Assembly: GCA_040876265.1 (NCBI GenBank)
Contig: JBBDPN010000001.1
Coordinates: forward strand, 118,208 to 182,207
Reading direction: 5' to 3'
From: Candidatus Woykebacteria bacterium
Lineage (GTDB): Bacteria; Patescibacteriota; Microgenomatia; Woykebacterales; RBG-16-39-9b
Length of the DNA: 64,000 bases
The notes beneath the pieces were generated by a model. The model saw only the letters and a list, made by a program, of their open reading frames with translations. It made no database searches and was not told the DNA's origin. The position numbers were made by a program, and so were the translations under genes. Of the stretch, positions 5,864-52,606 are shown in pieces; positions within the stretch are counted from its first letter, which is position 1; each line of letters begins with the position of its first letter.

Positions 5864-7141
5864 ATGTTGGAAAAACTAAAATCACACTCGTTTAGGCAGG
5901 ATATTTATCTTTTCTTAACCTTTATTCTTTTTGCCTCTATTGTTATTACGGTAGATAGCCTCTCGACGCTTCGGAACACACAGACCCAAGCTACCCACAC
6001 AATTGAAACTTTACTCTTTGATGATTTCAATTCCTCCTCTTTGAATACAACTTTGTGGGGAAGCGCAGTTACGAGGAGTAATTCTCATGTTCAGATTAGT
6101 AACGGCACCGTGAGAATAAAGGTTGACAACCTGCCGGATACATATGCGCAGCTTTATTCCAAAAAGAGTTTTCCTGTAGGTTCCACTTTCGAAACCAGGA
6201 TAAACGTTACCGGGGGGCAATCATACGATCACAAAACTATTGGTTTCTCCAATTCTAGAGCGGGTAGTGATTGTAGCAATGGGGAAACAGAAGCGGTGGT
6301 GTGGAGAGGTGGGGATAAGGACAAACGCGTCCTAGCTGAAAGCGGGGGTAGTGTTACTTGCCCCATTATACAATCATCTTACCCCGCTGGTTGGCGAACG
6401 ATAAAAATTGTTAGAGTAAGCAGTAGTGAAGCTAGGATTTATGAGGACGGTGTGCTACTAAAAACTTTTAATTCCAATATTCCTACGGGGAATTTACCTG
6501 TTCGAATTAGCGGTTATACTCACGAGACAAGCTGGCCTTCAACAGAAATTTGGATGTACGTGGATTGGGTCAAAGTGACCAAACCAAAAGCTCACTCGAC
6601 CGCACCGCCGCCGTCCCTACCAAAAAGCAGTAAAGGTACCAGCAGTGGTGGATCTTCACCTCCTGCAGCACAACCAAGTCCCACAGATGCTACAAAAACT
6701 TCTTCGAGCAAAAATATTCTGAATTCGCTGAACTTAAAAATTTCTATCCCTTATTTGCTGGGTAAAATAAATTTACCAATTAAATTCTCCAAAGTCTCGA
6801 AGAGCTTGGAAGTTTTACCAGGAAGAGTAGAGTATAGTGTTAATGTGAGAGGGGATGAAATACTGCTGGGCAAGGTCTATACACTTACCGTTGGGGGAGG
6901 TAAGGTTTTAAGTAAGAAAGTTAGATTCAACGCGAAAGCACCGAAAATGAAAGTAAATGTTGGCAGCCTTATTCTAGGTGATGTCAACTCAGATTCGGTG
7001 ATCAATAATGGGGATGATGACCTATTTGTGGATTTTCTGGTTGGTCAAAGTGTAGATGGCGATGTAAATGCCGATGGTGCTACCAATTCACTGGACTGGG
7101 CGATAATTCTTAAGAATTTTGATAAAATAGGAGACAGATGA
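5864..7141 (+). CDS. secreted protein with a ConA-like lectin/glucanase-like domain, a Pro/Ser-rich linker and a C-terminal dockerin-like domain
   Basis: Signal/TM anchor at the N-terminus. The C-terminus carries two dockerin-like Ca-binding repeats (GDVNSDSVINNGDDDLFVDFLVGQ; DGDVNADGATNSLDWAIILKNF). A PSLPKSS...SSPPAAQPSPTD linker lies between the domains. Confidence 0.6.
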   Translation: MLEKLKSHSFRQDIYLFLTFILFASIVITVDSLSTLRNTQTQATHTIETLLFDDFNSSSLNTTLWGSAVTRSNSHVQISNGTVRIKVDNLPDTYAQLYSKKSFPVGSTFETRINVTGGQSYDHKTIGFSNSRAGSDCSNGETEAVVWRGGDKDKRVLAESGGSVTCPIIQSSYPAGWRTIKIVRVSSSEARIYEDGVLLKTFNSNIPTGNLPVRISGYTHETSWPSTEIWMYVDWVKVTKPKAHSTAPPPSLPKSSKGTSSGGSSPPAAQPSPTDATKTSSSKNILNSLNLKISIPYLLGKINLPIKFSKVSKSLEVLPGRVEYSVNVRGDEILLGKVYTLTVGGGKVLSKKVRFNAKAPKMKVNVGSLILGDVNSDSVINNGDDDLFVDFLVGQSVDGDVNADGATNSLDWAIILKNFDKIGDR

Positions 7142-7827
7142 CAATTACAAAACTGCTCATTACCTCCGGGTTAATTATTTTCTCAACCACTTCTTTTAGT
7201 CAAGTTGCTCTCGCCCAGGAAAAAAATTCCGAAATCATACTTTATCCAAGCTATCGGGAGGTCCGAGTTGGGGAGAATTTCAAAATTGATGTGTTGGCCA
7301 AATCTGATGCGCCTCTAATTGGAGGAGATGTAAAGATAAGTTTTGACCCGCGGGTGATTGAGGTCGTTTCTATCGACACCGGTCAGGCTTTTGATAGCGT
7401 ACCTTTGAAAAAGGTGGAAGAAGGGAAGATTACTATCACTGCCATTAACGAGCGTGAGGGAAATCTATTCAGTGGTGTGGGTAGGGTGGTTACTTTGAAT
7501 TTGAAAACAATTGATGCTGGGGATACTAGTCTGAAAGTTGATTTTGATCCAGGAGCTTCAACCGATTCAAATTTAACTAGCGCCGAAGTTTCCGATACTT
7601 TAGCAAAGGTGGATAGCTCAACGTATATTGTTGGCGGCCCGTTGGAGAGAGCAGTTGGATCAGCTAAAAGATTTGTTATGGCGGTAGCTCCGCTCTTTAT
7701 TTTCTTAATTTTCGCAGGAATAGTTGCTTACGTAGGTTTTAGGTGGTGGAAGTACCGAGAGCAGCAACCAAAAGACGTCTTTATTCCTAGAAAAGTCCCG
7801 TTGGACAAGCCCCCAGAGGCGTCTTAA
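7138..7827 (+). CDS. cohesin-domain protein with a C-terminal transmembrane anchor
   Basis: Cohesin-like beta-sandwich signature (VRVGENFKIDVLAKSD...GGDVKISFDPRVIEVVSI; TLNLKTIDAGDTSLKVDFD). C-terminal TM helix (APLFIFLIFAGIVAYVGF) with a basic tail. Its ATGA start overlaps the stop of the dockerin gene. Confidence 0.6.
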   Translation: MTITKLLITSGLIIFSTTSFSQVALAQEKNSEIILYPSYREVRVGENFKIDVLAKSDAPLIGGDVKISFDPRVIEVVSIDTGQAFDSVPLKKVEEGKITITAINEREGNLFSGVGRVVTLNLKTIDAGDTSLKVDFDPGASTDSNLTSAEVSDTLAKVDSSTYIVGGPLERAVGSAKRFVMAVAPLFIFLIFAGIVAYVGFRWWKYREQQPKDVFIPRKVPLDKPPEAS

Positions 7828-9504: not shown

Positions 9505-9557
9505 GTCTTTATTTTACTATTATTTACCGAGAAGTTTTAAGTTGTGGGTTTGGTAAT

Positions 9558-9875
9558 CTAATTTTGTTTGCGGAGAAGCTCCATCATTTCACGTAGGGTC
9601 TGGGGTCGCTGCTTTTCCTCTTTCTCTTTACCTTTATCTTCTTTCTTTGCTTTTAGCACTTGCGCGCTGCTAGTAGCTTCTTTTTCCTGTCTTTGGAAAC
9701 GTTCAACTCTTCCTTCGGTGTCAATAAATTTTGCGCTCCCTGTGTAGAAAGGGTGACAATTACTACAAATCTCCACGCGGATTTCCTCCTTGGTGCTACC
9801 AGTGGTAAAGCTGTTACCACAAGCACAGGTTACGCGGGCCTGCTGAAAATATGTTGGGTGAGTATCTGCCTTCAT
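9558..9875 (-). CDS. rpmE: 50S ribosomal protein L31 (zinc-binding type) with a Lys/Glu-rich C-terminal extension
   Basis: MKADTHPTY...CACGNSF...[10 protein letters not shown]. The likely start is the second Met of the track ORF 9558..9896. Confidence 0.8.
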
Positions 9876-9941
9876 GTTAGATCGAAAGTTTATCATAAAA
9901 ATTTGGGTTTAACAAGGATGGGGGCTGGGGTTTCATATGAA

Positions 9942-9969
9942 TTGATTTGGCGCACACTATTGTTATAAA
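9942..9969 (+). promoter_or_regulatory. sigma70-like promoter (TTGATT-16 nt-TATAAA) ahead of the locus-1 operon
   Basis: Hexamers and spacer read directly. The ATG at 9981 follows with almost no leader. Confidence 0.4.
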
Positions 9970-9980
9970 ATCAAGTTAAT

Positions 9981-10670
9981 ATGGACAATCTGCCGTCTGC
10001 CCCGGAGGGTACTGAGCCACAAATAGAAGAAGATCACACTTCCGCCGAAACTCCTGTGGAAAGAGAACCGTCCAAGCCTTCTCCAGATGATTACGAGAAA
10101 GAGATGCTTAAAAATATAAATAGCGCCTTTGAGCAGGATGGTGCTGGTACGGAAGCGCATCGAGAAGAGGCTCGGCAGGAAGGGGTAGAAAAGGCAAAGG
10201 AATTACTGAGACCAGAAGAAGCATTAGATCCGACGCAGCCTGTTCCGGGGCGACCAATTCAATCCCAAGCTGATAGGTCTGAGGGTGAGGTAAACGAAGT
10301 AAGAGCAGGGGAGGCGGCAGTACCAGAAATATCGGTAAGAGAGGTGCAGCCATTACCTCCTCGACCAATAGAGAAGCAACCGCCTGTGTTAGCTGAAGAA
10401 GTAATGGAAAGACCACCGTCGCCATCTGTAGATGAGATGCCTGTCGGTCCACCTAGCCCCACCGAACCTCAGCAAGTGGAAATTTCGCAGGACGTACCTT
10501 CACAGATCCAGGAGAGACCACTGCCAGTTGTTGAACCCGCTCCTTCAAGATCAGACCCTTCTCCAGGGAGAGTACCAGCTGCAAAAAGACCAGATTTGGG
10601 TTTGGGTGATTCAGCGCCAACCATGTATAAGGAAAGACAAGAATTAAGGGCCGCGGCTGGCCAAAAGTAA
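9981..10670 (+). CDS. hypothetical Pro/Glu-rich low-complexity protein
   Basis: No TM helix and no catalytic motifs. Highly acidic and proline-rich. Lies directly upstream of the ATPase. Confidence 0.4.
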   Translation: MDNLPSAPEGTEPQIEEDHTSAETPVEREPSKPSPDDYEKEMLKNINSAFEQDGAGTEAHREEARQEGVEKAKELLRPEEALDPTQPVPGRPIQSQADRSEGEVNEVRAGEAAVPEISVREVQPLPPRPIEKQPPVLAEEVMERPPSPSVDEMPVGPPSPTEPQQVEISQDVPSQIQERPLPVVEPAPSRSDPSPGRVPAAKRPDLGLGDSAPTMYKERQELRAAAGQK

Positions 10671-10673
10671 TAT

Positions 10674-13217
10674 ATGCAACTATTAATTACTATCGTCACT
10701 GTATTTTTCTTTTTTATCTTCTTTTTTATTCTCATCATTGCTCTGGCGATGCTGCTTCGTTTTCGGAACCGAAAAGAAAAATCACTCGAATACACTCAAC
10801 TTGAAGTTAAACTCCCTCGGAACAACGAAATAAAAATAGAGTCAACTGAAAGTTTTTTCACCTCGCTTTACAGTTTGTTTCGGCATGGTGTTCAGGGGTT
10901 TTTATCAGGTCAGGAGCATATCGGTTTTGAGATAGTATCTCAAGGAGGAGTAATAAAATTTTTTGTTACTGCGCCAAATCCACTGCTTTCCTTGGTCGAA
11001 AAGCAAATACATTCTTTTTACCCGGAAGCAGAAATTAATTCGGTGGAGGAATACAACATTTTTCAGCCCGGTCTCTATGTTGATCTGGTCGAACTTTCTT
11101 TACGCTCCCCAGCCTTCCGACCGATAATTCGCTACAACCAATTGAAGGAAGTCGAGACGATGAACGCGATTACGACCGCGATGAGTAAGCTCGATAGTGA
11201 AGAAGCGATGGCGTTACAAATACTTATTTCTCCGGCTGGAATTGGGTGGCAGGGTGCTGGTTTTTCCCAGATACACAAGGCGCAAACAGTTGAGAAAAAG
11301 GGAATAATGACGCCATTTAATTTACCTCCCTCCTACCAACAGCAGCAAGAGGCTCCACCGCAACCGGAAGCGAGAACCGAAAGTATTACTCAGGAACCTT
11401 ACAAAAAAATTGAGGAAAAAGTCTCTAAGCCTGGATTTGAGACGGTAATACGAATTGTGGTTTCAGCGAAAAATAAGCTGACCGCTCTCGCCTACATAGA
11501 AAACATGGTTGGGGCTTTTGGTCAATTTAATGATCCGACCGCCAATGGTTTCAGAAAACGTCGGTTTCCCTGGACTCTCACGAAAGTTCTTTCCTTGCGC
11601 CAATTTATTTATAAAATGATGCCTTTTTGGTTTGGTAAAATGATTTTAAACTCAGAAGAACTAGCAACCATATTTCATTTTCCAAACAAAAACGTGGTAA
11701 CACCAAATATTGATTGGCTGCTTTACAAAAAGGCAGCCGCTCCAAACGTAGTGCCAAAAGAAGGGCTTTATCTTGGAAAAAGCATATTCCGAGGTGTAGA
11801 AACAAAAATCTATATTCAGCCAGATGATCGCCGGCGCCACATGTATATTATTGGGCAAACCGGTACCGGGAAGAGCGAATTTATGAAAATTATGGCGGTC
11901 CAGGATATAAAAGAGGGTAAAGGGGTTTGCTTTATAGATCCTCACGGAGGTGCGATTGAGGATATTTTGTTACAAATTCCACCGGAGCGGGCCGAAGATG
12001 TAATTCTTTTCGACGCTGGTGATACCGAAAGACCTCTTGGGATAAATATTCTAGAAACTCGGACTGAAGAGGGGAAACACCAAATGGTAAACCATTTCAT
12101 CCACCTTCTTTACAAACTTTATGACCCAAAGCGCACCGGTATCATGGGTCCGCGACTCGAGCGAGCAATCCGAAATGTGATGCTCACGGCAATGAGTGAG
12201 CCAGGTAGTACCTTGGTTGAAGTCCTGCGGCTGCTGATCGATCCTCAGTTTGTGAAAGAAACCCTACCAAAAGTTACCGACCCGTTAGTTCGTCGCTACT
12301 GGACTGATGAGGTGGCCCAAACCACCACTTTTCACAAAAGTGAAGTAATGGGTTATTTTGTTTCCAAATTTGATCGTTTTGTGACTGAAAAGCTAATGCG
12401 AAATATTATTGGGCAAAGCAAAAGCGCTTTTGATTTTCGGGACGTGATGGATAGTGGCAAAATTCTCCTTGTTGATCTATCAAAAGGAAAAATAGGCGAG
12501 GAAAATTCTAACTTTCTTGGGCTTGTGCTCGTACCGCGTATTTTGGTTGCGGCGATGAGTAGGGTGGATGTGCCCGAAGAGCAGCGACGAGATTTTCACC
12601 TTTACGTGGATGAGTTTCAAAATTTTGCCACTCCTGATTTTGCCCAGATACTTTCAGAGGCCCGAAAATACCATCTGGATTTGACGGTGGCCAATCAATT
12701 TATCGCCCAAATACAGGAGGAGGGAATACGCGAAGCCGTATTTGGTAACGTGGGTACCCTGATTGCTTTTCGGGTTGGCGTGGACGATGCTAAGTATTTG
12801 GAGTTCCAATTTGATCCGGTATTCAAAAAAGAAGATTTGATCAATAACGCTTTAGGGCACGCCTACGTCCGACTGCTTGTCGACGGGCAGCCCTCGTATC
12901 CATTTTCCATGGCGACAGATTGGGAAATGATGCAGGCGGTTACCAGAAACAAAGAAGTCGCCGAATCTATCGTCGAGCTGTCAAGGCTCAAATACGGTCG
13001 CGATCGGCAAATAGTTGAGGCGGAGATAAACCAACGAGCCGGCCTCGACGAGACGCCCACCACCATGCCAGAACCAGCTAAACCAGTTCCACCCCAAGCT
13101 GCCAAATCCGCCCCGACGCAACAACCGTTGCCGCAAGCCCAACCAGTTCAACAACCCACACCAGCCGTTCAAGAAACTTCCCTTCAACAAAACCTCCAAA
13201 AAACCGGAGGCGGGTAA
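10674..13217 (+). CDS. membrane-anchored P-loop ATPase of the FtsK/HerA/VirB4/TrwB (T4SS coupling protein-like) superfamily
   Basis: N-terminal TM helix. Walker A GQTGTGKSEF (compare TrwB GATGTGKS), Walker B HLYVDEFQNF, and EARKYHLDLTVANQ (RKY-type motif of DUF87/VirB4/HerA). Gln/Pro-rich C-terminal tail. Paralog of 34633..37401. Confidence 0.7.
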   Translation: MQLLITIVTVFFFFIFFFILIIALAMLLRFRNRKEKSLEYTQLEVKLPRNNEIKIESTESFFTSLYSLFRHGVQGFLSGQEHIGFEIVSQGGVIKFFVTAPNPLLSLVEKQIHSFYPEAEINSVEEYNIFQPGLYVDLVELSLRSPAFRPIIRYNQLKEVETMNAITTAMSKLDSEEAMALQILISPAGIGWQGAGFSQIHKAQTVEKKGIMTPFNLPPSYQQQQEAPPQPEARTESITQEPYKKIEEKVSKPGFETVIRIVVSAKNKLTALAYIENMVGAFGQFNDPTANGFRKRRFPWTLTKVLSLRQFIYKMMPFWFGKMILNSEELATIFHFPNKNVVTPNIDWLLYKKAAAPNVVPKEGLYLGKSIFRGVETKIYIQPDDRRRHMYIIGQTGTGKSEFMKIMAVQDIKEGKGVCFIDPHGGAIEDILLQIPPERAEDVILFDAGDTERPLGINILETRTEEGKHQMVNHFIHLLYKLYDPKRTGIMGPRLERAIRNVMLTAMSEPGSTLVEVLRLLIDPQFVKETLPKVTDPLVRRYWTDEVAQTTTFHKSEVMGYFVSKFDRFVTEKLMRNIIGQSKSAFDFRDVMDSGKILLVDLSKGKIGEENSNFLGLVLVPRILVAAMSRVDVPEEQRRDFHLYVDEFQNFATPDFAQILSEARKYHLDLTVANQFIAQIQEEGIREAVFGNVGTLIAFRVGVDDAKYLEFQFDPVFKKEDLINNALGHAYVRLLVDGQPSYPFSMATDWEMMQAVTRNKEVAESIVELSRLKYGRDRQIVEAEINQRAGLDETPTTMPEPAKPVPPQAAKSAPTQQPLPQAQPVQQPTPAVQETSLQQNLQKTGGG

Positions 13218-14068
13218 TGAGTGAAGAAGCCCCTGGTCCAAGTGAAGAAGATTTGAGCCCAAGTGATTTGGAGAGCGACGGGGGAGAGAAAGGCGAATCG
13301 GGATTTGAGGCTAAGAGATTTTTGGATTCTGAGAAGAGCAGGATCTCAGATGAATGGAAAGCGGCTGTAGTCGAGTCGATTGAGCAAAGCAATGAATTTG
13401 GTAAAAACCCATTAAAACCAGTTATTCAGCAATACTACGATGGTTCTTCAGCTTCTCACGCTGTTCAGTGCGCGACCAATAGGGTGGTTTATAGCGGGTT
13501 TATGAGTGAGACACTTCAAGGAGTTCTTGAGTCCGAAGAAAGCGCAGGCGCAGAAAAAGAAATTGCCGCCGAAATACTTCCAGAAGTCGAGTTTCAAAAT
13601 CAGCTGAATTCTACCTTGTCGCAGTTGATGGTTGCCGATCTTTTGACTTACAAACAAGTTCACGACCCCGCTTATCCAGCAGAGAAGAAAATAGGGATTG
13701 TCGATAGCGATCCAAAAAGAGAGCGGGGGAGTTTCCCGATTGTCTCTCGGGAGCTACAAAGACTAAAATCTGACCTTGAAAAGTTACAACCGCAGTTGCG
13801 GGCCAGACTAGAGAGTCTGCACGAAAAATATCCTGATGAATTTTCAGAAAATCCCCAAGTTGCTGAAATCTACGAAAGATTTATAGCTGAGACAAAAAGT
13901 GCAGGCCAGATGGTTGAAGCGGCAGTGCAAGCCAATGATGTTGGCCAAGCCAGCGATCTAGACATAGCAATGAAAAGGCTAGTCGGCCATTTTGCAGATG
14001 GCGCATTTGTCGCCGAAGACGTCGTCAGCGCACATGCTTTAAGAAAAATGAAAGAGGTAGAGAAGTGA
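13217..14068 (+). CDS. hypothetical acidic protein translationally coupled to the ATPase
   Basis: Its ATG overlaps the ATPase stop (TAATG). No recognisable motifs. Confidence 0.45.
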   Translation: MSEEAPGPSEEDLSPSDLESDGGEKGESGFEAKRFLDSEKSRISDEWKAAVVESIEQSNEFGKNPLKPVIQQYYDGSSASHAVQCATNRVVYSGFMSETLQGVLESEESAGAEKEIAAEILPEVEFQNQLNSTLSQLMVADLLTYKQVHDPAYPAEKKIGIVDSDPKRERGSFPIVSRELQRLKSDLEKLQPQLRARLESLHEKYPDEFSENPQVAEIYERFIAETKSAGQMVEAAVQANDVGQASDLDIAMKRLVGHFADGAFVAEDVVSAHALRKMKEVEK

Positions 14069-14085
14069 CAGGGCCTGGCCCTGTC
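14067..14085. repeat. Palindromic hairpin GACAGGG-CCTGG-CCCTGTC, followed by GGTTGGTGGG
   Basis: Perfect 7-bp inverted repeat overlapping the stop of 13217..14068, sited between convergent genes. Confidence 0.55.
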
Positions 14086-14098
14086 AGGGGTTGGTGGG

Positions 14099-14419
14099 TC
14101 AGGATTTTTTGGAGGAAAGTCTTTGCTGGTGGTACTGCGTGAGAAAGCCAGTGACGAAACTATCTAACATCTCATCGCTTACCGCTGCAACATCTTTATC
14201 AGTTTTTTGTTTATATAATTTTGCTATTTCTACTTTCATTTCTTCGGGAGGGAGAGAATTGAGTCGAGACATTTCTTTTTCATCATTCAATGCGGTAGCA
14301 ACTTCTAGATAGAGTTTTTGTGACAATAAATTATTCAAATTAATTATAAAGGTCCGCGCGTCATCATCTTTGACACCATTTTCTTTGAGAATTTTAATTA
14401 CCTTATTTAAGTCAGCCAT
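14099..14419 (-). CDS. hypothetical small helical protein
   Basis: ORF only. Downstream of the 776-aa gene on the same strand. Confidence 0.4.
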   Translation of the reverse strand: MADLNKVIKILKENGVKDDDARTFIINLNNLLSQKLYLEVATALNDEKEMSRLNSLPPEEMKVEIAKLYKQKTDKDVAAVSDEMLDSFVTGFLTQYHQQRLSSKKS

Positions 14420-14425
14420 AGTTTT

Positions 14426-16756
14426 TTAACCTCCTGGTTGTAGTATTCTTCTAGCTTGTTCCAATCCTTCGGGAGTCAAGACATTGAAATTACCACCAGC
14501 TGGTACCCAGTGAAGAGCCTCGGTGAGTTGGTGCATCGCTACTGGGTCACCAGCTTCCGCTTGGGTGACCAAAGTTGCAATCTCTGCTTGAGTAGGGAAG
14601 TCTTCGACGGGTATTCCAGAAGCGGCAACATTGGTATGCATCTCCTGAAGCATATCATAATTGGCTTGGATGTGAGCGCCAAAAAGCTGCGCATTATCCG
14701 GGCCCCAGTCGATACTATGACCAGAATTGGCGAGTAATTCACCAACAGTAGTTCCTTGAGGTATTTCGACAGATTGGGCAAATTCTGGATTTGCTAGTAC
14801 CTCTGAGAGTGTTGGTGCTTCTGCCACAGGTGGTTGGTCAACACCAGTGGGTACTTCTTCTCCTGGTGTTACCACATCTCCTGGTTCAGGCTCGGGTGTT
14901 GGTGTAGGTGTTGGTGTCTCTTCCGGTACTGGAACTGGTTCAGGAGTTGGGGTTTCAGTGGGTACGGCAGCTTCTTCACCAGGTCCAACTGGACCGTGCT
15001 GCTCGCCAGGACCATGAACATGGGCAGCGTCGCCACCTCCACGGGTTGCATCAAACAGGTCCCAGCCTAGGGAACCCAAACTAGTAATCATTGAAATACC
15101 TCGCATACCGGCAGTAAAACTTCTTAATACGTTGTTATAATTTGCAAATCGGGTGTTCAGTGTTTCGAGGAGACTTATTTGAGCTGCTCGGGAGAGATCC
15201 GTGGCCCAGTTTTCGGCTTGTCCTTTCTTAAGCAGAGATTGTCTGGTTACCTCATTCATAGTCGCGTCGTATCTATCTAGCTCCCCACTTTCTTTGTATT
15301 TCAAAGCCTCTTCAGATCTTTTGACAAGGATCTCGACTTTTGACTCATCCTCGATACCAGCTCTGTCTCTAAATATTTTCCTCATGTTGCTTAGTCGAAA
15401 CTTGTCAATAATACTGCTACCGACCCGACTCAAACCAACACCAACTAACGAGCGTAAAAACCTGCTGGCAAATATACCAGAGCCAGGAAGGAGAAGGGTT
15501 GGTAGGACAGTGGTTACGCCACCAACGGCTCCGCCGGTTAGCCACGCAGCCAAATTTTTGTCACTTAAGTTAATATTATCCAGCGCGGCTCTACCTTGAT
15601 TTAAAAGAAGTCTGCCGACAGGAGTTTTCTCAATACCTTCCTTTAGAGCTGCTCTTTTCTTGTCCAGAGCGCTTTCCTCGCGTTTCTCAGGTTTTTCTTG
15701 GAAACGCTCATGAGCCCGTGCCCTTTTTTGTCTTTCCTTTTCAGCCCTGGTCTCCTCTTTACTGAGTACTTTATCCTCTTGTTTCGACTCTTCTTGAATA
15801 GTTTTTTGCTCAGCCGCACCTTTATAACGATCAGCCATTGCTTGAGCAAGCATATTTTGTGTTTCAAAACTATCTTTATGGTATGTTTGGCCGTTCTCAT
15901 CTTGCAGTGTGAAAAGTTCGCGGTGGGGAGGTACATCTTCTGTTTCTCGTCTCAAGATTGTGTAAGTGTGATGACCAACAGTAAAACTGTTTACCTTACC
16001 TTCCTCGGTTCCCAGCTGGTCAAAAGTATTTTGGACTTGTTGTCGAGTACTTTCATCATAAAGTTCTGGGCGCTGACCACTCAGCAGCCCTCTTAATCTC
16101 GTACCGATCCTGCTGGCCCATTCCTGAAATGCAGATTGGTTTGCTGGTACTTCTTGGTCGGTAACTATGTGGCCTTGAGCCTTACCTACCAGATCCTCTA
16201 CAGCCTGTTGCGGACCCTCAGGTTCTTCAGGGACCTTTTCAGTTGGTTCTTCTGGGGGTGGGGGAGGGCTTGGTGCACCTTCATCACCCTCAGGTTGTGA
16301 CTCTACTGGTGGGGAGGCATCTTCTGGTGCTGGCATCGGCGGCAATTCCTCTTCAGCTTTTTCTGTTGGATACTCGATCTCATCCAAGGGGACCCCAGCA
16401 TCAGATCCTCCAACACTTATATAATGTCGGCCCTCTTTTTCGCCGAGGTATCCAAGTACTGTGATCGGTTGATCGGTGTCTTTGTTTTTCCAGGTAGCTT
16501 CGCCTAGTTTGATATCAGGTGGTTGTTCTGCTTGTGCACCAGGACCATTTGCCCTCAAATCTTCAAGTTGCTCACGAGAAGCGGCAGGTTCGCCGTCGTG
16601 TCCTTCTTCAGACCCGTCTTTTTTCCTGCCTTTATCTGGGGGTTTTCTGCCGGGAGAAGCTTCAAATTGGATATTTTGATCCTCTGGGTCGTTATCGACC
16701 GCACTGTCTAGCGATTCGTCTTGAGGAAGTTCTGGGCCGGTTTCTGGTAGCATCAA
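14426..16756 (-). CDS. large hypothetical protein (776 aa) with acidic/Pro-rich disordered regions, PT-repeat linkers and a central hydrophobic segment
   Basis: PTETPTPEPVPVPEETPTPTPTPEPEP linker and a PPPPPEEPTEKVPEEPE stretch. Hydrophobic segment GGAVGGVTTVLPTLLLPGSGIF. No catalytic motifs. Confidence 0.5.
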   Translation of the reverse strand: MMLPETGPELPQDESLDSAVDNDPEDQNIQFEASPGRKPPDKGRKKDGSEEGHDGEPAASREQLEDLRANGPGAQAEQPPDIKLGEATWKNKDTDQPITVLGYLGEKEGRHYISVGGSDAGVPLDEIEYPTEKAEEELPPMPAPEDASPPVESQPEGDEGAPSPPPPPEEPTEKVPEEPEGPQQAVEDLVGKAQGHIVTDQEVPANQSAFQEWASRIGTRLRGLLSGQRPELYDESTRQQVQNTFDQLGTEEGKVNSFTVGHHTYTILRRETEDVPPHRELFTLQDENGQTYHKDSFETQNMLAQAMADRYKGAAEQKTIQEESKQEDKVLSKEETRAEKERQKRARAHERFQEKPEKREESALDKKRAALKEGIEKTPVGRLLLNQGRAALDNINLSDKNLAAWLTGGAVGGVTTVLPTLLLPGSGIFASRFLRSLVGVGLSRVGSSIIDKFRLSNMRKIFRDRAGIEDESKVEILVKRSEEALKYKESGELDRYDATMNEVTRQSLLKKGQAENWATDLSRAAQISLLETLNTRFANYNNVLRSFTAGMRGISMITSLGSLGWDLFDATRGGGDAAHVHGPGEQHGPVGPGEEAAVPTETPTPEPVPVPEETPTPTPTPEPEPGDVVTPGEEVPTGVDQPPVAEAPTLSEVLANPEFAQSVEIPQGTTVGELLANSGHSIDWGPDNAQLFGAHIQANYDMLQEMHTNVAASGIPVEDFPTQAEIATLVTQAEAGDPVAMHQLTEALHWVPAGGNFNVLTPEGLEQARRILQPGG

Positions 16757-16776
16757 CTACAATTATATAAAGTAAC

Positions 16777-17988
16777 TCACTTACTAGTCAATTTTCGCAG
16801 GAGTTCACTCTCTTTGATGGTTTCTTGCTTACCGGTAGAAAGATCCTTAATAGTAACTAGGCCACTTTTTACTTCATTTGGGCCGAGAATAGCGGTGTAG
16901 GGTATCTTTTTATTATCGGCGTATTTTAGTTGTTTATCGAGTTTTTCGTCAGGTTCCAAATAAATTTCGGCACTTACACCTCGGCTGCGTAACCGCGATA
17001 CAAGAGCAAGAGAGTCGTTCAAAAGATTTTCCTTAAAAATAGTAACTAGTATTTGAGTGGACGGGGAGTAATTTGGTAATAGCTTCTGCTCGTCGGCTGC
17101 CTCTATTAGCCGATCAAAGCCGAATGAAAATCCAACCGCTGGCGTTTTACTACCAGTAAATTTACCGATCAGATCATCATAGCGACCACCACCTCCGACA
17201 GAGCCACCGGTGTAACCTTCGACTTCCATTTCAAAGATCAAGCCTGTGTAGTAGTCAAGGCCTCGAGCAAGAGTAGGATCAAAAGCATAAGTATCTTTGT
17301 CCATTTTTGAGTCCTCTAGGTATCCAAAAACCTTCTCTACGTTTTTAGTTGGGGAAGAATCTTTTATTCTTTTCAAGAGCGCTTTTGCTTCACGAGCGTC
17401 ATAGCCGGTCCTTTTGAGCTGTTCGATCACCCCTACCTCACCCACCTTTTGTATCTTATCTAATATTCTTACCACTTCTACCGGCAGAGAGCGGAAAGTA
17501 TCACGATCATTTATTTTCATAACGAAATTTTTGAACCCAATGTTTTGCATTGAGACAATTGCTCCTTTCACGATTTCGGCATCGGCTAATAGGGAAGAGG
17601 TACCAATGGTGTCAAAATCTACTTGTAGGAATTCCCTAAAACGCCCCCTCTGAGGATTTTCTGCTCGCCAGACCGGTTGGATTTGATAGCGGTTAAACGG
17701 TTTTTGCAGAGATGGGTATTGTGTGATCAGACGGGCCAACGGGACGGTTTGATCAAACCTCAAGGCGACTTGCCGGCCGCCGCGATCGGTAAATTCGAAA
17801 ATAAGTTTTTCTTCCTCGCCGTACTTGCCACGCAGTGTCTCGGCAAATTCAATAGCCGAAGTTTCAAGTGGTTCAAAACCAAATTTTTCCAGGGAAGACT
17901 TTACTTTTTCCAGAACAAAAATCCGCAGTTTTGCATCCTGCGGTAAAAAATCCCTAAAACCTTTTGGTGTGGCAACTTTTACTGCCAT
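16777..17988 (-). CDS. hisS: histidine--tRNA ligase
   Basis: Class II motifs PKGFRDFLP, RYQIQPVWRAENPQRGRFREFLQ and GGGRYDDL. Confidence 0.9.
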   Translation of the reverse strand: MAVKVATPKGFRDFLPQDAKLRIFVLEKVKSSLEKFGFEPLETSAIEFAETLRGKYGEEEKLIFEFTDRGGRQVALRFDQTVPLARLITQYPSLQKPFNRYQIQPVWRAENPQRGRFREFLQVDFDTIGTSSLLADAEIVKGAIVSMQNIGFKNFVMKINDRDTFRSLPVEVVRILDKIQKVGEVGVIEQLKRTGYDAREAKALLKRIKDSSPTKNVEKVFGYLEDSKMDKDTYAFDPTLARGLDYYTGLIFEMEVEGYTGGSVGGGGRYDDLIGKFTGSKTPAVGFSFGFDRLIEAADEQKLLPNYSPSTQILVTIFKENLLNDSLALVSRLRSRGVSAEIYLEPDEKLDKQLKYADNKKIPYTAILGPNEVKSGLVTIKDLSTGKQETIKESELLRKLTSK

Positions 17989-34632: not shown

Positions 34633-37401
34633 ATGTTTATAGCGATCATAGCCGCTATTTTGATCATATCATTTTTGCTGGCCTGGAGAGCGGCCAGAAA
34701 ACTGGAGGGAGGCAAATCCTCGGAAATTTCTAATGGGGTTCTTCTTTCCATTTCACTTCCACGCGAAAATGAAAAGCTTCCAACCGCCGCCGAGCAAATG
34801 TTTGCTTCTCTTCACGGTATTTTAGACTTTACTCCTGGAATACAAGAGCATTTATCACTTGAAATGGCCAGCTCTTTGGATGGAATAAAGTTTTATGTTT
34901 TTGCCCCGACGGCTTTTAAAAATTTCGTCGAGAGTCAAATCTACGCTCAATACCCGGACGCTGAGATACGAGAGGCGGTAGACTACGCTAAAAGTATTCC
35001 GGCAGGCAGCTTTGTTTCATCCACAGAGATAGTTCTCGATAAAGAATTTATATTTCCAATTAAAACATTTCGTGACTTCGAAGTAGATCCGCTTGCGGCT
35101 ATCACCAGCGCTTTGGTTAGTGTCCAGCCTGGGGAACAACTTTGGGTCCAGTTGCTGGTGCGGCCAGTTGATGATTTTTGGCAAGACAGAGGTCACGAAT
35201 ACGTCCAAATGGTTCGGGAGGGAGTTTCGCCAGTTACACTTAGCCCCCAAGACATTATTATTGATGTTGGCAAAAGTTTTATGTCAATTGGTGGCAATGT
35301 CGCTACCCACATTATGAAGGGGCCGCAGCCTTACGAGGAACCAAGGGGTGGGGTACAGCAGTACGTGCGACTTTCGGCTGGGCAAGAGCTGACTTTAAAG
35401 ATGCTTGAAAACAAGTTGTCTAAGATAGGCTTTGAGACGAAAATTCGTCTGGTTGCCGTTTCAAACTCGAAAGAGGGTGCCGAGTCCAGACTATCTGGTC
35501 TGATCAGCTCGTTTAAACAATACGCCACCGCCAACCTAAATAGTTTCGTCGCCGACCCCGAAAGTCCGGAACCAGACACCCTGGTTAAGCAGTATCAAGA
35601 CAGGAGTTTTCCGGAGAGAGAAGCTGGAAATTACATTTTGACAACCGAGGAGCTAGCTTCCATCTACCACCTTCCAAATGTATCGGTAGAGACACCAACT
35701 ATTAGCTGGACGGGTGCCAAAAAAGGCGAACCCCCGCTAAATATACCTACGACTTCAGCGACGATGCTCGGCGAGACTTACTACCGAGACTACAGAACAA
35801 AATTTGGAATTAAAAGAAGTGATCGAAGAAAGCACATGTATATTATTGGTAAGACAGGTACGGGAAAAAGTACGCTAATAAAAAACATGATAATACAGGA
35901 TATGAGGTCTGGTGAGGGAGTCGCCGTGCTTGATCCTCACGGGCAGCTTATCGACGAGTTGCTCGAATTTGTGCCCGAGAACCGGATAGAGGACGTGGTA
36001 ATCTTAAACCCAGCTGATGCTGAATACCCAATTTCCCTAAACATGTTGGAAATGGTAGATCCAAAGCAGCGCACGTTGATGGGCGATACGATGTTGGATG
36101 TTTTTAAAAAATATTTTGCTGATAGCTGGGGTCCCAGGCTTGAATATATTTTAAAAAATTGTATTCTAACGCTATTAGAAGTTCCAAACACGTCGCTCCT
36201 TTCTGTTACTAGACTTTTGACAGATCGAGATTACAGAAAGCACATAGTAGGGCTAATTAAAGATCCGCAAATGAAACTTTTTTGGAATAATGAATTTGCT
36301 CGTATGGAACAAAACGAGAGGTTGATCACCGAAGCTATTAGTCCAATTCAAAACAAAGTCGGTCAATTTTTAAATTCTGAATTGATTAGAAATATTGTCG
36401 GTCAACCAAAAAGTAGTATCAAAATGGATGATATTATTAATTCCGGAAAGCTTTTCTTTATAAATTTGGCGACGGGAAGAATCGGCGGTAATAATACGGC
36501 GTTGCTTGGCGCCATGATTGTTTCCCAACTGCAGTTTGCGGCGATGAGACGCGTGGATGTTCCCGAAGAACAAAGACGGGATTTCTTTCTTTACGCTGAC
36601 GAATTCCAAAACTTTGCTACCGATTCCTTTGCGACAGTTTTATCTGAAGCAAGAAAATATCGCCTTGATCTTACCTTGACCCACCAGTATATTGAGCAAA
36701 TGCCCGAGACAGTAAAGGAAGCTGTGTTTGGTAATATAGGGACTCTCATTTGTTTTACAGTTGGACCGACCGACGCTCGTTTTTTGGAGCGGGAGTTTAC
36801 CCCAGTCTTTCTGGAAAATGATCTAATTACTTTGGGTAGGTACGAGATGTATCTAAAATTGCAAATAGATGATACTCAAAGCCAGCCTTTTTCCGCAGTT
36901 AGCCTAGCTCCGGCGACCGATGCGACTAATACTAAAGAAAGAGCTATTTCTGCTTCTAGGACAAAGTACGGTCGTGGTGTGGAGAACGTAGAAAAAATTA
37001 TCAAAAAATGGATCGAAACAAGATTTAAGGCTGGCCAACCGCCACAACCGCCAGCTTGGGCAACAGCAGAGGAGACGAGAATCAAAGAATCTCCGGTCGA
37101 GGGTGACAAAAAGGAAGAGGAGGCCATGGTTATCGGTACGCAGAAAAGTGAGGGTGTTTATACACCACCAAAACCCTTTACTAGGGAGAGTATTCCGGGG
37201 TTATCGGCCGAAAGTAGCCCGGAGACTACAGGTTTAAGACCGCAAGAGGCGGATAATGGAGAAGTTGATATATACAGATTTCCGGAAATAAACACCCAAC
37301 CAGAAGCTGCACAGCAAGACGCAAAAGTACCTGGAGGGAGTTCGGGCCATGAAAGAACCGACGATTATCATGGGAAGCAAAACTTTCCCAAGGATACATA
37401 A
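34633..37401 (+). CDS. membrane-anchored FtsK/HerA/VirB4/TrwB-superfamily P-loop ATPase, paralog of 10674..13217
   Basis: Same architecture and motifs as locus 1: RRKHMYIIGKTGTGKST, DFFLYADEFQNFATD, EARKYRLDLTLTHQ, AVFGNIGTLICFTVG. Collinear similarity along the N-terminal domain as well. Confidence 0.7.
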   Translation: MFIAIIAAILIISFLLAWRAARKLEGGKSSEISNGVLLSISLPRENEKLPTAAEQMFASLHGILDFTPGIQEHLSLEMASSLDGIKFYVFAPTAFKNFVESQIYAQYPDAEIREAVDYAKSIPAGSFVSSTEIVLDKEFIFPIKTFRDFEVDPLAAITSALVSVQPGEQLWVQLLVRPVDDFWQDRGHEYVQMVREGVSPVTLSPQDIIIDVGKSFMSIGGNVATHIMKGPQPYEEPRGGVQQYVRLSAGQELTLKMLENKLSKIGFETKIRLVAVSNSKEGAESRLSGLISSFKQYATANLNSFVADPESPEPDTLVKQYQDRSFPEREAGNYILTTEELASIYHLPNVSVETPTISWTGAKKGEPPLNIPTTSATMLGETYYRDYRTKFGIKRSDRRKHMYIIGKTGTGKSTLIKNMIIQDMRSGEGVAVLDPHGQLIDELLEFVPENRIEDVVILNPADAEYPISLNMLEMVDPKQRTLMGDTMLDVFKKYFADSWGPRLEYILKNCILTLLEVPNTSLLSVTRLLTDRDYRKHIVGLIKDPQMKLFWNNEFARMEQNERLITEAISPIQNKVGQFLNSELIRNIVGQPKSSIKMDDIINSGKLFFINLATGRIGGNNTALLGAMIVSQLQFAAMRRVDVPEEQRRDFFLYADEFQNFATDSFATVLSEARKYRLDLTLTHQYIEQMPETVKEAVFGNIGTLICFTVGPTDARFLEREFTPVFLENDLITLGRYEMYLKLQIDDTQSQPFSAVSLAPATDATNTKERAISASRTKYGRGVENVEKIIKKWIETRFKAGQPPQPPAWATAEETRIKESPVEGDKKEEEAMVIGTQKSEGVYTPPKPFTRESIPGLSAESSPETTGLRPQEADNGEVDIYRFPEINTQPEAAQQDAKVPGGSSGHERTDDYHGKQNFPKDT

Positions 37402-37428: not shown

Positions 37429-38160
37429 GTGTCAGCAAACAAAATTGATCTTATAAGACAAGCGCTTTCAGCAGCGGAAAGTAGTATAAAATTAGCTAGA
37501 CAGCTACTCTCTGAAATTGAATCTGAAAAAGGTAAGGGAAGACAAAGAGCAAAGGAACTGCCTGGGCTGGTAGGGATATTCGACGGTAAGGACATGACTA
37601 CTGAAAAAGGGGAAAAACACCCAGTTCCAGAAAACTACGCGTCCAAAAGTATTTTAGTGGTAGGGGACACATTAAAATTGGTTGAGGGTGGTGGAGAAAA
37701 GAGATTTAAACAAATAGAGCATGTAAAGAGGCACAAAACTACTGGGATTTTGGCCAAAAAGGAAGGCAAATGGACTGCAGTGACGTCCGAAGGTTCTTAC
37801 CGACTTTTACCGGCTGCGGTTGATCACTTTGGAGGGGATGTCAGTGACGAGGTGCTAATACAGTTGCCGGCAAGCAATCTCCAAACTACTTGGGCGGCGG
37901 TAGAAAAAATAATGAAAAAAGGGCCGTCTCAGAAAGGGGAAGATAAGAAACCACCGGTGGCTGAGGAAAAAGTAAAAATAGAGAAAAAAGAAGAAGAAGT
38001 TAGAGGTAAAAGCGAGGCTAAAGAAGATGGGAAAGACAAACTACCACAAAAGACTGAGCAACCGAAGGAGGAAAAAGAGCCAGAGAAGAGTAAACCAGAA
38101 GTCAAGGAAGATGTAAAAGAGCCTGTAGCCGCTACCACAACCGAAGAGGAGCTACAATGA
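37429..38160 (+). CDS. hypothetical protein with a Lys/Glu-rich low-complexity C-terminus
   Basis: Begins 27 nt after the ATPase stop. No motifs. Confidence 0.45.
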   Translation: MSANKIDLIRQALSAAESSIKLARQLLSEIESEKGKGRQRAKELPGLVGIFDGKDMTTEKGEKHPVPENYASKSILVVGDTLKLVEGGGEKRFKQIEHVKRHKTTGILAKKEGKWTAVTSEGSYRLLPAAVDHFGGDVSDEVLIQLPASNLQTTWAAVEKIMKKGPSQKGEDKKPPVAEEKVKIEKKEEEVRGKSEAKEDGKDKLPQKTEQPKEEKEPEKSKPEVKEDVKEPVAATTTEEELQ

Positions 38161-48614: not shown

Positions 48615-49097
48615 TTAAAGATGTAGCCTACCGTGTCTGGGTCGGTAGCGCCGCTGTCGCTGGTTTTCACTGTCTCGATCTACCTCCAAAGAAGCAGTAG
48701 CACCGAACTCATATACATAGCCACATGCGAGGCACGTGCTGAACGCACCATACAGGTCTTCTTCGAACAACATGGACCCATTGCAGCGTGGGCAACTCCT
48801 GGGTGGCTTGCCGTCGGCGACAAGGTCGTTTGGTGAACTAGGAGCTTCTGCGGCGGATTGTTTTACCTTCTCTTCCACCATTGGCCCTTCGACGGCAGTT
48901 GCGTGAAGTGGTAGTGGGAGTTCCAGGGTAAAGGTTTTCAGAGGCGGTTGGGTTTCTGCTGAAGGAATCGCTGGCGGTGGTGCTACCGCTGCCGACTCTT
49001 TCACTTCAGCTGGTTCTACTAGTTCCAAACCTCGATCCGTGGGCAGTTTTCGCTGTTTGGAAAAAAACCTGTGGATCCACTCTCCCAACTGGGACAT
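48615..49097 (-). CDS. hypothetical protein with a C-terminal zinc ribbon
   Basis: CPRCNGS...CLACGY. Confidence 0.4.
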   Translation of the reverse strand: MSQLGEWIHRFFSKQRKLPTDRGLELVEPAEVKESAAVAPPPAIPSAETQPPLKTFTLELPLPLHATAVEGPMVEEKVKQSAAEAPSSPNDLVADGKPPRSCPRCNGSMLFEEDLYGAFSTCLACGYVYEFGATASLEVDRDSENQRQRRYRPRHGRLHL

Positions 49098-49427: not shown

Positions 49428-50246
49428 TTAAACCTTCTCGAGTAGTCGTACACCGAAAACACGTTCGATTATTTTCAGAGCAACTCCTACTGCGATTAGA
49501 AGCAACGGCCAGTTTGGCAAGTTGCCACCAGTTACTGGTAGTCCTTCAGCGGCGGCTAAGACTTGTCCTGGTCTTGGAGCCGGACCTGGGAGTACGGCAG
49601 TTGGTTGATCGCCGGGATCCATAGGTTCACCGCCCCTGTCAGGTAGCGGACCGCCTATTACACTGTGATTTACATCGTTATCGATATTTATTTCGAAGTT
49701 GATGTCCCCAGTTTTGATTGATGCATCTCCAGTGTTCTTATTTGCTTCATTTTCACCCGTGTTAAGGTCTGCTCCTATATTGTTTTGCAAATCCACATTG
49801 TTATTCACATTAATATTCAGGTTATTCTTGATCCTAGTTTCGGCTTTGTTTACTGAGTCTGCACCAGTGTTCTCATTGCTGGATGTTAGGAATGGACCGC
49901 AACAAATAAGGTTGGTGTTGGTATTGAACACGTCAGCACCATTAGCCTTGTTTGTTATATTTACATGGCCGCTTATATCCCCTGTTTGAATAGACGCATC
50001 ACCAGTGTTTTTATTAGCTTCATTCTTTCCCGTGTTCGCTTTTACGCTTATGTTGTTAGTTATATTTGCGTTGTTGGTACTATTAATTGTTGTGTTGTTT
50101 TCTACAGAAACTTCAGCCTTGTTTACTGAGTCTGCACCGGTGTTGGTGTTACTAGCAGTACTAGCGAGAGCTGCAGTACCGATAAGAAGTACGCTGGCAC
50201 CTGCAGCGGCAGAAGATGTTATAACTTTTGTCCAGATGTCTTTCAT
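49428..50246 (-). CDS. secreted Asn/Thr-rich repeat protein with a C-terminal LPxTG-type sortase anchor
   Basis: Signal peptide. Two copies of the NTGADSxNKAE...NTGxNEANKNTGDASIxTGD module. C-terminal LPVTGG, then a hydrophobic helix, then a KIIERVFGVR tail. Confidence 0.6.
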   Translation of the reverse strand: MKDIWTKVITSSAAAGASVLLIGTAALASTASNTNTGADSVNKAEVSVENNTTINSTNNANITNNISVKANTGKNEANKNTGDASIQTGDISGHVNITNKANGADVFNTNTNLICCGPFLTSSNENTGADSVNKAETRIKNNLNINVNNNVDLQNNIGADLNTGENEANKNTGDASIKTGDINFEINIDNDVNHSVIGGPLPDRGGEPMDPGDQPTAVLPGPAPRPGQVLAAAEGLPVTGGNLPNWPLLLIAVGVALKIIERVFGVRLLEKV

Positions 50247-50252
50247 GGTTAC

Positions 50253-52511: not shown

Positions 52512-52606
52512 TTAGAAATTCACATATTTTGAACTTTTAAATACCCTTCTGGGTTCCCCCGCCCTCTGTAAAGAGGGCGGGGTCCACCAGAAAAAGCAAT
52601 TACGCT

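Follow-up and report, generated by a model that had tools for sequence, protein, structure and literature searches.

Orphan homologues of type IV coupling proteins (T4CPs) have already been reported in Patescibacteria. A recent survey (Quinonero-Coronel et al. 2025, PMC12102498) counts 5,713 VirD4-type T4CP homologues in 2,918 of 3,035 genomes of the phylum, about two per genome; just 148 of the 5,713 are close to virB4, no more than 103 genomes have relaxases, and VirB4 homologues were counted as a match set distinct from the T4CP homologues. Patescibacteria's type IV secretion system (T4SS) is there assigned to the MPF-FATA type, and the authors state that exaptation of the T4CP homologues cannot be excluded. 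Patescibacteria depend on host bacteria, and the T4SS is essential in the one genetically tractable species; its cluster holds no recognisable coupling protein, and the system lacks a relaxase. Here we describe an 847-aa ATPase encoded at 10674-13217 (+) of a 64,000-nucleotide stretch of a Candidatus Woykebacteria genome (assembly GCA_040876265.1, contig JBBDPN010000001.1, positions 118,208 to 182,207), referred to below as the window. The protein is a chromosomal, well-conserved member of a Patescibacteria-wide family of DUF8128 T4CP-like (VirD4/TraG-type) P-loop ATPases. An earlier reading of the DNA by a model that saw only the letters and a list of open reading frames (ORFs), here called the original prediction, offered "orphan conjugation-type ATPase" as one of its options, and this is the best short label for the protein. 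The window follows the pattern of the survey exactly: two paralogues, both away from any T4SS gene found.

A database protein (P0001), encoded on a 532-kb contig of a Candidatus Woykebacteria metagenome-assembled genome, is 100% identical to the window's ATPase and carries PF26449 (DUF8128), PF01935, and PF12696. More than 7,800 homologues were scored, and in Woesebacteria, Shapirobacteria, Beckwithbacteria, and CPR3 their identity to it is still 52-56% along some 90% of the length. PF26449 is N-terminal in all listed homologues, motor-domain matches not being recorded for every one; 1,689 cluster representatives were found with the N-terminal domain alone, and almost no distant cluster representative of the family carries a name. 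Identity falls gradually from close to distant Patescibacteria groups, which, together with the conserved chromosomal position of the gene, is as expected for vertical descent.

The protein falls within the VirD4/TrwB-VirB4-HerA group of membrane-anchored ATPases, as originally predicted. Of the Pfam models, TraG-D_C (26.9 bits; cut-off 22; residues 641-709) and DUF87 (31.8 bits) are passed; TrwB_AAD_bind, T4SS-DNA_transf, and FtsK_SpoIIIE remain below cut-off, and AAA_10 gives an E value of 0.13. The best NCBIfam matches are TraD models, at 54.8 bits against a cut-off of 366, and the ATPase is far below cut-off in all NCBIfam T4CP models. Sequence searches of the PDB, made with the single protein and with a 67-sequence profile, found only TrwB and DotL, and VirB4 was absent from the matches of the profile search. 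Among the other VirB4 models, TIGR00929 (VirB4_CagE) scored 19.9 bits against 643.1, and CagE_TrbE_VirB gave no match; by sequence the protein does not belong to VirB4. HerA membership was considered and rejected, with NF040819 at 12.8 bits against 970 and the HerA NCBIfam models at about 12 bits against cut-offs of at least 800. Taken as sequence comparisons, these results favour a T4CP affinity.

The four features that the original prediction named in the protein, an N-terminal transmembrane helix and the motifs GQTGTGKS, LYVDEFQNF, and EARKYHLDL, were all located in the protein. An AlphaFold2 model built with 67 sequences reached a predicted local distance difference test (pLDDT) score of 86 and a predicted TM-score (pTM) of 0.76; the invariance of residues was judged in 67 homologues. 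The transmembrane helix comprises residues 2-30 (10677-10763, +; residues 1-30 hydrophobic; hydropathy 2.66; a helix in the model) and occurs in 69 of 74 unfused full-length homologues. It is followed by a basic stretch, RFRNRKEK, which by the positive-inside rule would place the rest of the protein in the cytoplasm. The N-terminal alpha/beta domain (DUF8128) spans residues ~40-345 (10791-11708, +) and includes a disordered Gln/Pro-rich loop at residues 207-237 (11292-11384, +; pLDDT <50), which is longer than in most homologues and, by alignment, is common to the closest Woykebacteria-clade homologues and the second paralogue. The motor is a RecA-like nucleotide-binding domain (NBD), residues ~365-790 (11766-13043, +), with a helical insert at ~465-580. 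Its Walker A motif, GQTGTGKS, lies at residues 394-401 (11853-11876, +), with G394, T396, G397, G399, and K400 invariant, and its Walker B motif, LYVDEFQNF, at residues 643-651 (12600-12626, +), with Y644 and E647-F651 invariant and D646 nearly so. The EARKYHLDL motif, residues 662-670 (12657-12683, +), falls inside the TraG-D_C match and is followed by VANQ at 672-675; E662, A663, R664, K665, and Q675 are invariant. A disordered Pro/Gln-rich tail, residues 796-847 (13059-13214, +; pLDDT <50), ends the protein. Tails vary across the homologues and exceed 1,000 residues in some.

Some family members (P0208, P0183, and others) are 1,400-2,006 aa long, with ~900-1,200 Pro/Ala-rich disordered residues after the motor, and the long members end in a short conserved motif, GKLIMPS...GEVYVDERGNVIVGE. 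These proteins were considered as informative fusions and discarded as such, the extra sequence being Pro/Ala-rich disorder with no Pfam domain.

In a Foldseek search with the model, the top matches were whole-length TrwK/VirB4 chains of the R388 T4SS (E 7e-16, ~900 aligned columns); TrwB came next, with a TM-score of 0.63 (normalised by target length) over the motor. As modelled, the N-terminal domain has the VirB4 N-domain fold, and the protein also has an N-terminal anchor and an NBD with an all-alpha insert, as T4CPs do.

The ATPase gene has a regular companion. We fetched 80 loci from species-representative genomes, clustered their ORFs, and scored as a partner any co-oriented ORF of 60-300 aa ending between -30 and +130 nucleotides (nt) from the ATPase start. 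Such an ORF, usually of disorder-type composition, was present in 48 of the 67 loci with enough upstream sequence, an undercount, as the greedy ORF picker sometimes took antisense ORFs. In many lineages the partner ends in the motif LP-L/M-T..E...G......S.RWLAEWC.R.IK; a profile of this motif, iterated with jackhmmer, retrieved only proteins adjoining these ATPases or, in two genome loci, the ATPase N-terminus itself. In at least a dozen homologues (P0036, P0043, P0062, P0088, P0090, P0120, L002, L005, and others) the partner is fused before the N-terminal domain; the fused forms have a disordered region and a helix in front of that domain, and the transmembrane helix is missing. The window's positional equivalent is a disordered Pro/Glu-rich protein of 229 aa (9981-10670, +; 37 Pro, 47 Asp+Glu) without a transmembrane helix, whose N-terminus, MDNLPSAPEG, is conserved in the clade orthologues. 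From the frequency of the partner, the specificity of its profile, and the fusions, we conclude that the conserved genetic unit consists of two genes, one for a small disordered protein and then that for the ATPase, the other three genes of the locus being clade- or strain-specific. The operon proposed originally for the ATPase and its Pro/Glu-rich upstream gene is thus supported. Of the neighbours for which conservation across candidate phyla radiation (CPR) genomes had been in question, a small upstream ORF recurs as a positional equivalent; the other neighbours do not recur outside Woykebacteria.

A second paralogue of the same architecture, 922 aa long and likewise with an N-terminal transmembrane helix, is encoded at 34633-37401 (+), 21 kb from the first. 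The two are 36% identical over 779 residues (E 1e-151), and paralogue 2 passes both TrwB_AAD_bind (47.5 bits, 1.5e-12) and T4SS-DNA_transf (25.5 bits). Downstream of it lies a gene for a 243-aa protein (37429-38160, +) that has no Pfam match and matches no PADLOC model. Homologues of the 243-aa protein, 35-39% identical by tblastn, were found in six loci: in L074 and L076 the homologue directly follows an ATPase copy, between two tandem copies, and in L056, L061, L066, and L067 it is 3-4 genes downstream of the ATPase. In L058 two ATPase copies adjoin. Adjacent copies could hint at heteromeric function.

Relatives were also found outside the Patescibacteria. A tblastn search of plasmids with the ATPase returned 460 records, of which those from Bacillus, Priestia, Niallia, Peribacillus, Shouchella, and the haloarchaeon Natrinema match over 81-85% of the query, N-terminal domain included, at 23-29% identity; Sulfolobus plasmids are among the weaker matches. 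The homologue of the Bacillus subtilis plasmid NZ_CP032854 bears the annotation "DUF87 domain-containing protein", and behind it come a gene annotated "replication-relaxation family protein", TcpE, and a TcpF-type VirB4 (NCBIfam 1.5e-253); this homologue has no transmembrane helix, has an acidic disordered tail, and no small partner is evident upstream. That of a second B. subtilis plasmid, CP120602, shows 24% identity over residues 83-780 (E 7e-32), and the genes behind it encode TcpD and TcpE. From gene position, we infer that the Bacillus plasmid homologues act as the T4CPs of their conjugation operons. Matches extend to phages: that of gp156 of Bacillus phage G (JN638751) covers 81% of the ATPase and takes in the N-terminal domain, and that of SPO1-like phages covers residues 248-804.

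The five ORFs that the original prediction placed at the locus are all present. Codon usage indicates that each is coding in its annotated frame only, at the level of the window's housekeeping genes, and the sequence reads as two convergent operons, 229-aa/ATPase/283-aa on the plus strand and 776-aa/106-aa on the minus strand. A promoter-like TTGATT-18-TAAAAT (9942-9971, +; 9 of 12 consensus positions, a consensus match only) precedes the 229-aa ORF, and 3 nt separate the stop of this ORF from the ATG of the ATPase. The 283-aa acidic ORF (13217-14068, +; 54 Asp+Glu and 31 Lys+Arg) shares one base with the stop codon of the ATPase (TAATG), and a GGAGG lies within the 3' end of the ATPase gene, an arrangement that bears out the translational coupling suggested earlier. 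Between the operons, an inverted repeat, GACAGGGCC-T-GGCCCTGTC (14067-14085), reads as a terminator-like hairpin, one that a simple terminator scan did not report. The minus strand encodes a helical protein of 106 aa (14099-14419) and a mostly disordered acidic protein of 776 aa with a TTG start (14426-16756), the latter preceded by a promoter-like TTGACT-18-TATAAT (16762-16791, -; 11 of 12 consensus positions). The 106- and 776-aa proteins have no family match, and none of the four ATPase neighbours exceeds any Pfam, NCBIfam, or PADLOC cut-off. Regular expressions found no N-terminal motif common to the 229-, 283-, and 776-aa proteins beyond a Pro/Glu-rich composition. One flank carries genes for an HtrA-type protease, a cohesin-domain protein, PrmC, RF1, and L31, and the other, genes for HisRS and DnaB; this housekeeping order is kept in clade genomes with enough flanking sequence. 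The GC content of the locus is unremarkable, and the only tRNA of the window is at 22.6 kb. On synteny, composition, and codon usage, the locus is chromosomal and not a mobile element, which we therefore ruled out.

Both minus-strand genes belong to the Woykebacteria clade. The 106-aa gene is conserved in all seven of the clade loci examined (an alignment of seven orthologues), and its product is 44-58% identical in L054 and L081. Orthologues of the 776-aa protein, with a conserved C-terminal domain, are 27-36% identical in these two loci and are also present in L085 and L090; a homologue search with this protein returned essentially itself, the word index being swamped by low-complexity words. 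In the 80-locus scan, L054 was the sole locus with the 106-aa or 776-aa gene beside the ATPase, and none of the window's four ATPase neighbours recurred outside Woykebacteria. The flanking housekeeping genes are equally syntenic, so the position of the two genes alone says nothing about function.

The position behind the ATPase is variable. The window's 283-aa protein found only itself among 5.8 billion proteins, and in the closest relative, L085, whose ATPase is 83% identical, the slot is empty save for a 16-codon remnant of a leader (9509-9580); it is also empty in L088. Elsewhere in the clade it holds a 317-aa protein above the Pfam cut-off of the HopA1 effector family (L054, 6201-7154; 6.3e-7, 29.9 bits), a 314-aa protein with HEDLH (L081, 10545-11489), a 199-aa protein (L090, 5408-6007), or proteins with one domain in common (L089, 4560-6314; L091, 7497-8357). 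Apart from that shared domain, the bodies of the slot proteins are mutually unrelated by BLASTP. Their first ~13 residues, however, are conserved (MSEEAPGPSEEDL, MSGETPGPSPENL, MSGETLGPGPQEM, MNGEAPDLNPQEL), and the window's protein starts with the clade-conserved leader MSEEAPGPSEEDL. The leader DNA shows synonymous third-position differences, and the leader is under apparent selection at the peptide level. The slot resembles a cassette site at which a leader is conserved, and this could mark cargo or adaptors of the ATPase; ORF clustering of the fetched loci did not show it outside the Woykebacteria clade.

The lack of a relaxase or T4SS gene near the ATPase, noted in the original prediction, was confirmed for the larger ORFs of the window, although not every ORF was scanned: none belongs to the relaxase, VirB4, VirB6, or pilin families. 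At 80 related loci, housekeeping genes aside, there was likewise no linkage to a relaxase or T4SS channel gene. According to Table S1 of the survey (PMC12102498), however, VirB4 is present in Woykebacteria GWB1_45_5, the sister genome from which L054 comes and which has the same locus with an ATPase 78% identical; a T4SS is thus probably encoded elsewhere in the window's lineage.

Overall, we lean towards the view that the protein is an exapted conjugation coupling ATPase, plausibly the substrate receptor of a relaxase-less chromosomal T4SS encoded elsewhere. By analogy with TrwB, VirB4, and HerA, it would form a membrane-tethered ring that, by hydrolysing nucleoside triphosphates, receives and pushes a macromolecular substrate. 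The family probably descends from the coupling ATPase of monoderm conjugation systems: on Bacillus plasmids, conjugation operons with a full-length homologue in first place still exist; monoderm descent also fits the MPF-FATA type reported for the Patescibacteria T4SS (PMC12102498). Exaptation would have occurred in Patescibacteria, where relaxases are almost absent, and the ATPase would then most plausibly serve the T4SS there, using its VirB4-like domain to dock. In the small partner, the C-terminal helix is probably an anchor or adaptor, and the leader-bearing slot protein is a candidate cargo or adaptor in the Woykebacteria clade. We think it unlikely that DUF8128 is a hybrid VirB4/T4CP branch, with a VirB4 N-terminal domain, a T4CP-like motor, and the small disordered partner as a separate gene or fused, that acts as a T4SS receptor or a self-contained translocase and in the Woykebacteria clade recognises the ~13-residue leader (MSGE-T/A-PGPSPE-) on swappable cassette proteins, the HopA1-family protein among them; if true, CPR bacteria would have a new kind of polymorphic cargo system.

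Several observations weigh against the favoured interpretation or limit it. The ATPase falls just short on TrwB_AAD_bind (19.0 bits, cut-off 20.5) and T4SS-DNA_transf (17.2 bits, cut-off 20.1). The VirB4 likeness of its N-terminal domain is structural only and comes from an AlphaFold model. The motor fold cannot separate T4CP, VirB4, and HerA. The C-terminal Trp-rich helix motif is degenerate in the window's 229-aa protein. The idea of cargo is based on one HopA1-family match in a sister genome and on the short leader, whose conservation could instead stem from the demands of translational coupling. Among the ORFs scanned in the 64-kb window there was no T4SS gene. In the survey, VirB4 is found in 2,417 genomes against 2,918 for the ATPases, and in S. 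epibionticum epibiotic growth requires the T4SS genes but not the T4CP homologue (PMC12102498).

These last figures, some 500 more genomes with T4CP homologues than with VirB4 and a dispensable homologue beside an essential T4SS, speak at the same time for the main rival explanation, as does the small share of T4CP homologues near virB4 (148 of 5,713; PMC12102498): a stand-alone membrane translocase, independent of any T4SS, that takes part in DNA uptake during transformation or substitutes for or helps FtsK at division. The rival also has in its favour the Xer-type tyrosine recombinase (Phage_integrase, 1e-27) encoded 1-6 genes downstream of the ATPase in 26 Microgenomatia-type loci (L003-L069), and the DivIC/FtsB-like gene (6e-12) lying 2-7 genes downstream in 20 such loci; this neighbourhood is absent from the window, however, and may be plain class synteny, as the conserved genes there also include NrdR, ribonucleotide reductase (RNR), and SmpB. 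The surroundings of the ATPase showed no ComEC or competence genes, and the FtsK_SpoIIIE score is 12.5 bits (cut-off 24). Transcriptome papers on the Saccharibacterium TM7x mention FtsK, a hint that the phylum has the canonical protein. Weighing both sides, we hold a T4SS-independent role to be somewhat unlikely. Membership in FtsK/SpoIIIE proper was rejected on the same score, the protein having neither a multi-pass anchor nor a gamma domain, and with it went the "ordinary FtsK" that the original prediction had named as its own refutation. Upstream in the Microgenomatia-type loci are genes that by sequence reading encode NrdR, a class II RNR, and a PduO-type adenosyltransferase.

The original prediction also raised a novel multi-gene translocation or secretion module, in which the five genes would form one system and the disordered and 106-aa proteins would be structural components or substrates. 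The order of partner, ATPase, slot, 106-aa gene, and large gene does recur in Woykebacteria-clade genomes, the slot proteins share their N-terminal leader, with its apparent peptide-level selection, and one of them belongs to the HopA1 effector family. Yet the housekeeping flanks are just as syntenic, so that conserved order is no proof of functional linkage; the 776-aa and 106-aa genes form a separate convergent operon, were found only in Woykebacteria-clade loci, and occur beside the ATPase in a single one of the 80 scanned loci, L054; and the 283-aa gene is unique to the window's genome, has no homologue, and faces empty slots in L085 and L088. A five-gene system is very unlikely on this evidence, and the module is not supported as first proposed. 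We give least credence to the idea that the protein serves an integrated conjugative or mobilisable element in coupling, or that it is a HerA/MADS-type defence ATPase. The plasmid-borne homologues do sit in conjugation operons, Bacillus phage G and SPO1-like phages have homologues too, and the best single hidden Markov model match of the ATPase is PADLOC mad8 (2.8e-18, residues 386-711), with HerA and DndH weaker. The locus, though, has no integrase, relaxase, repeats, or tRNA flank, its GC content and codon usage are native, and the gene keeps its chromosomal position among relatives while identity falls gradually. A defence system was rejected because the mad8/HerA-like match is to the ATPase alone: none of the four adjacent proteins matches a PADLOC model, no other mad genes are found among the neighbours, and the nuclease or Sir2 partner that HerA defence systems typically have is absent, the neighbours having no match to a Pfam nuclease family.

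The window and its relatives have other features of note. Three adjacent genes at 49428-53737 (-) encode Asn/Thr/Gly/Asp-rich repeat proteins of 272, 752, and 376 aa with hydrophobic ends and the repeat unit NTGADS.N.AE ... NKNTG.G.V.TGDA; the 752-aa protein has no Pfam match. A 160-aa protein encoded at 48615-49097 (-) has a Pro/Ala-rich N-terminal half and a zinc-ribbon-like CxxC...CxxC (CPRCNGSM...CLACGY). Upstream of PrmC, at 5864-7827, are two secreted-looking genes, the second with a cohesin domain (Pfam 9.9e-8); in relatives (L081, 2094-4948; L083, 1-4317) the preceding genes carry dockerin matches, which points to a small surface assembly of the cohesin-dockerin kind that the clade has kept. 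Several fetched loci (L003, L004, L007, L008, L037, and others) have typical Patescibacteria content under titles such as "uncultured Gammaproteobacteria", "Pseudomonadales", "Bathyarchaeia", and "Limisphaerales", and look mislabelled or contaminated.

For a T4SS whose cluster holds no recognisable coupling protein, the DUF8128 family is an obvious candidate receptor and motor, being well conserved and possessing a domain that could dock like VirB4. Its architecture, its small partner, and the possible leader-tagged cargo give concrete constructs for follow-up, and the family bears on the evolutionary relation of the VirB4 and T4CP ATPases. Should the link with a T4SS fail, it would be a near-universal membrane translocase of the phylum without an assigned function.

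Compared with described systems, the window's ATPase stands closest to the orphan Patescibacteria T4CP homologues (PMC12102498), which belong to the same phylum, occur in about two copies, and lie away from virB4 without a relaxase. As far as its available text goes, that survey counts homologues by hidden Markov model, suggests exaptation, and does not mention the VirB4-like N-domain, the variable slot, or the small disordered partner, whether upstream or fused. Several close homologues are named [quoted passage not shown] in their sources. The group is a variant of the T4CP kind, and in the literature available to us we found no description of its architecture or partner. With the classical T4CPs (TrwB of R388, VirD4, TraD, DotL, Cag-beta) it shares a membrane anchor, a GxTGxGKS P-loop NBD, a helical insert, and a disordered C-terminal tail; unlike them, the window's ATPase has one transmembrane helix and not two, a ~300-residue domain of predicted VirB4 type between anchor and motor, and no adjacent relaxase or T4SS among the ORFs scanned. 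From HerA it differs in having neither a HAS-barrel nor a NurA partner, and from FtsK/SpoIIIE in having one transmembrane helix in place of four and no possible gamma domain between the motor and the disordered tail. The "DUF87 domain-containing" proteins of Bacillus, Priestia, and Shouchella plasmids show near full-length homology, N-terminal domain included; in contrast to the window's ATPase they sit in conjugation operons, and the one N-terminus looked at has no transmembrane helix. As in VirB4 (TrwK of R388; the TcpF and PrgJ types in monoderms), an N-terminal domain precedes a C-terminal ATPase, and the small gene directly upstream, sometimes fused, recalls the VirB3-VirB4 arrangement. 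Unlike VirB3, which is a membrane protein, the upstream partner is a soluble disordered protein with one amphipathic helix.

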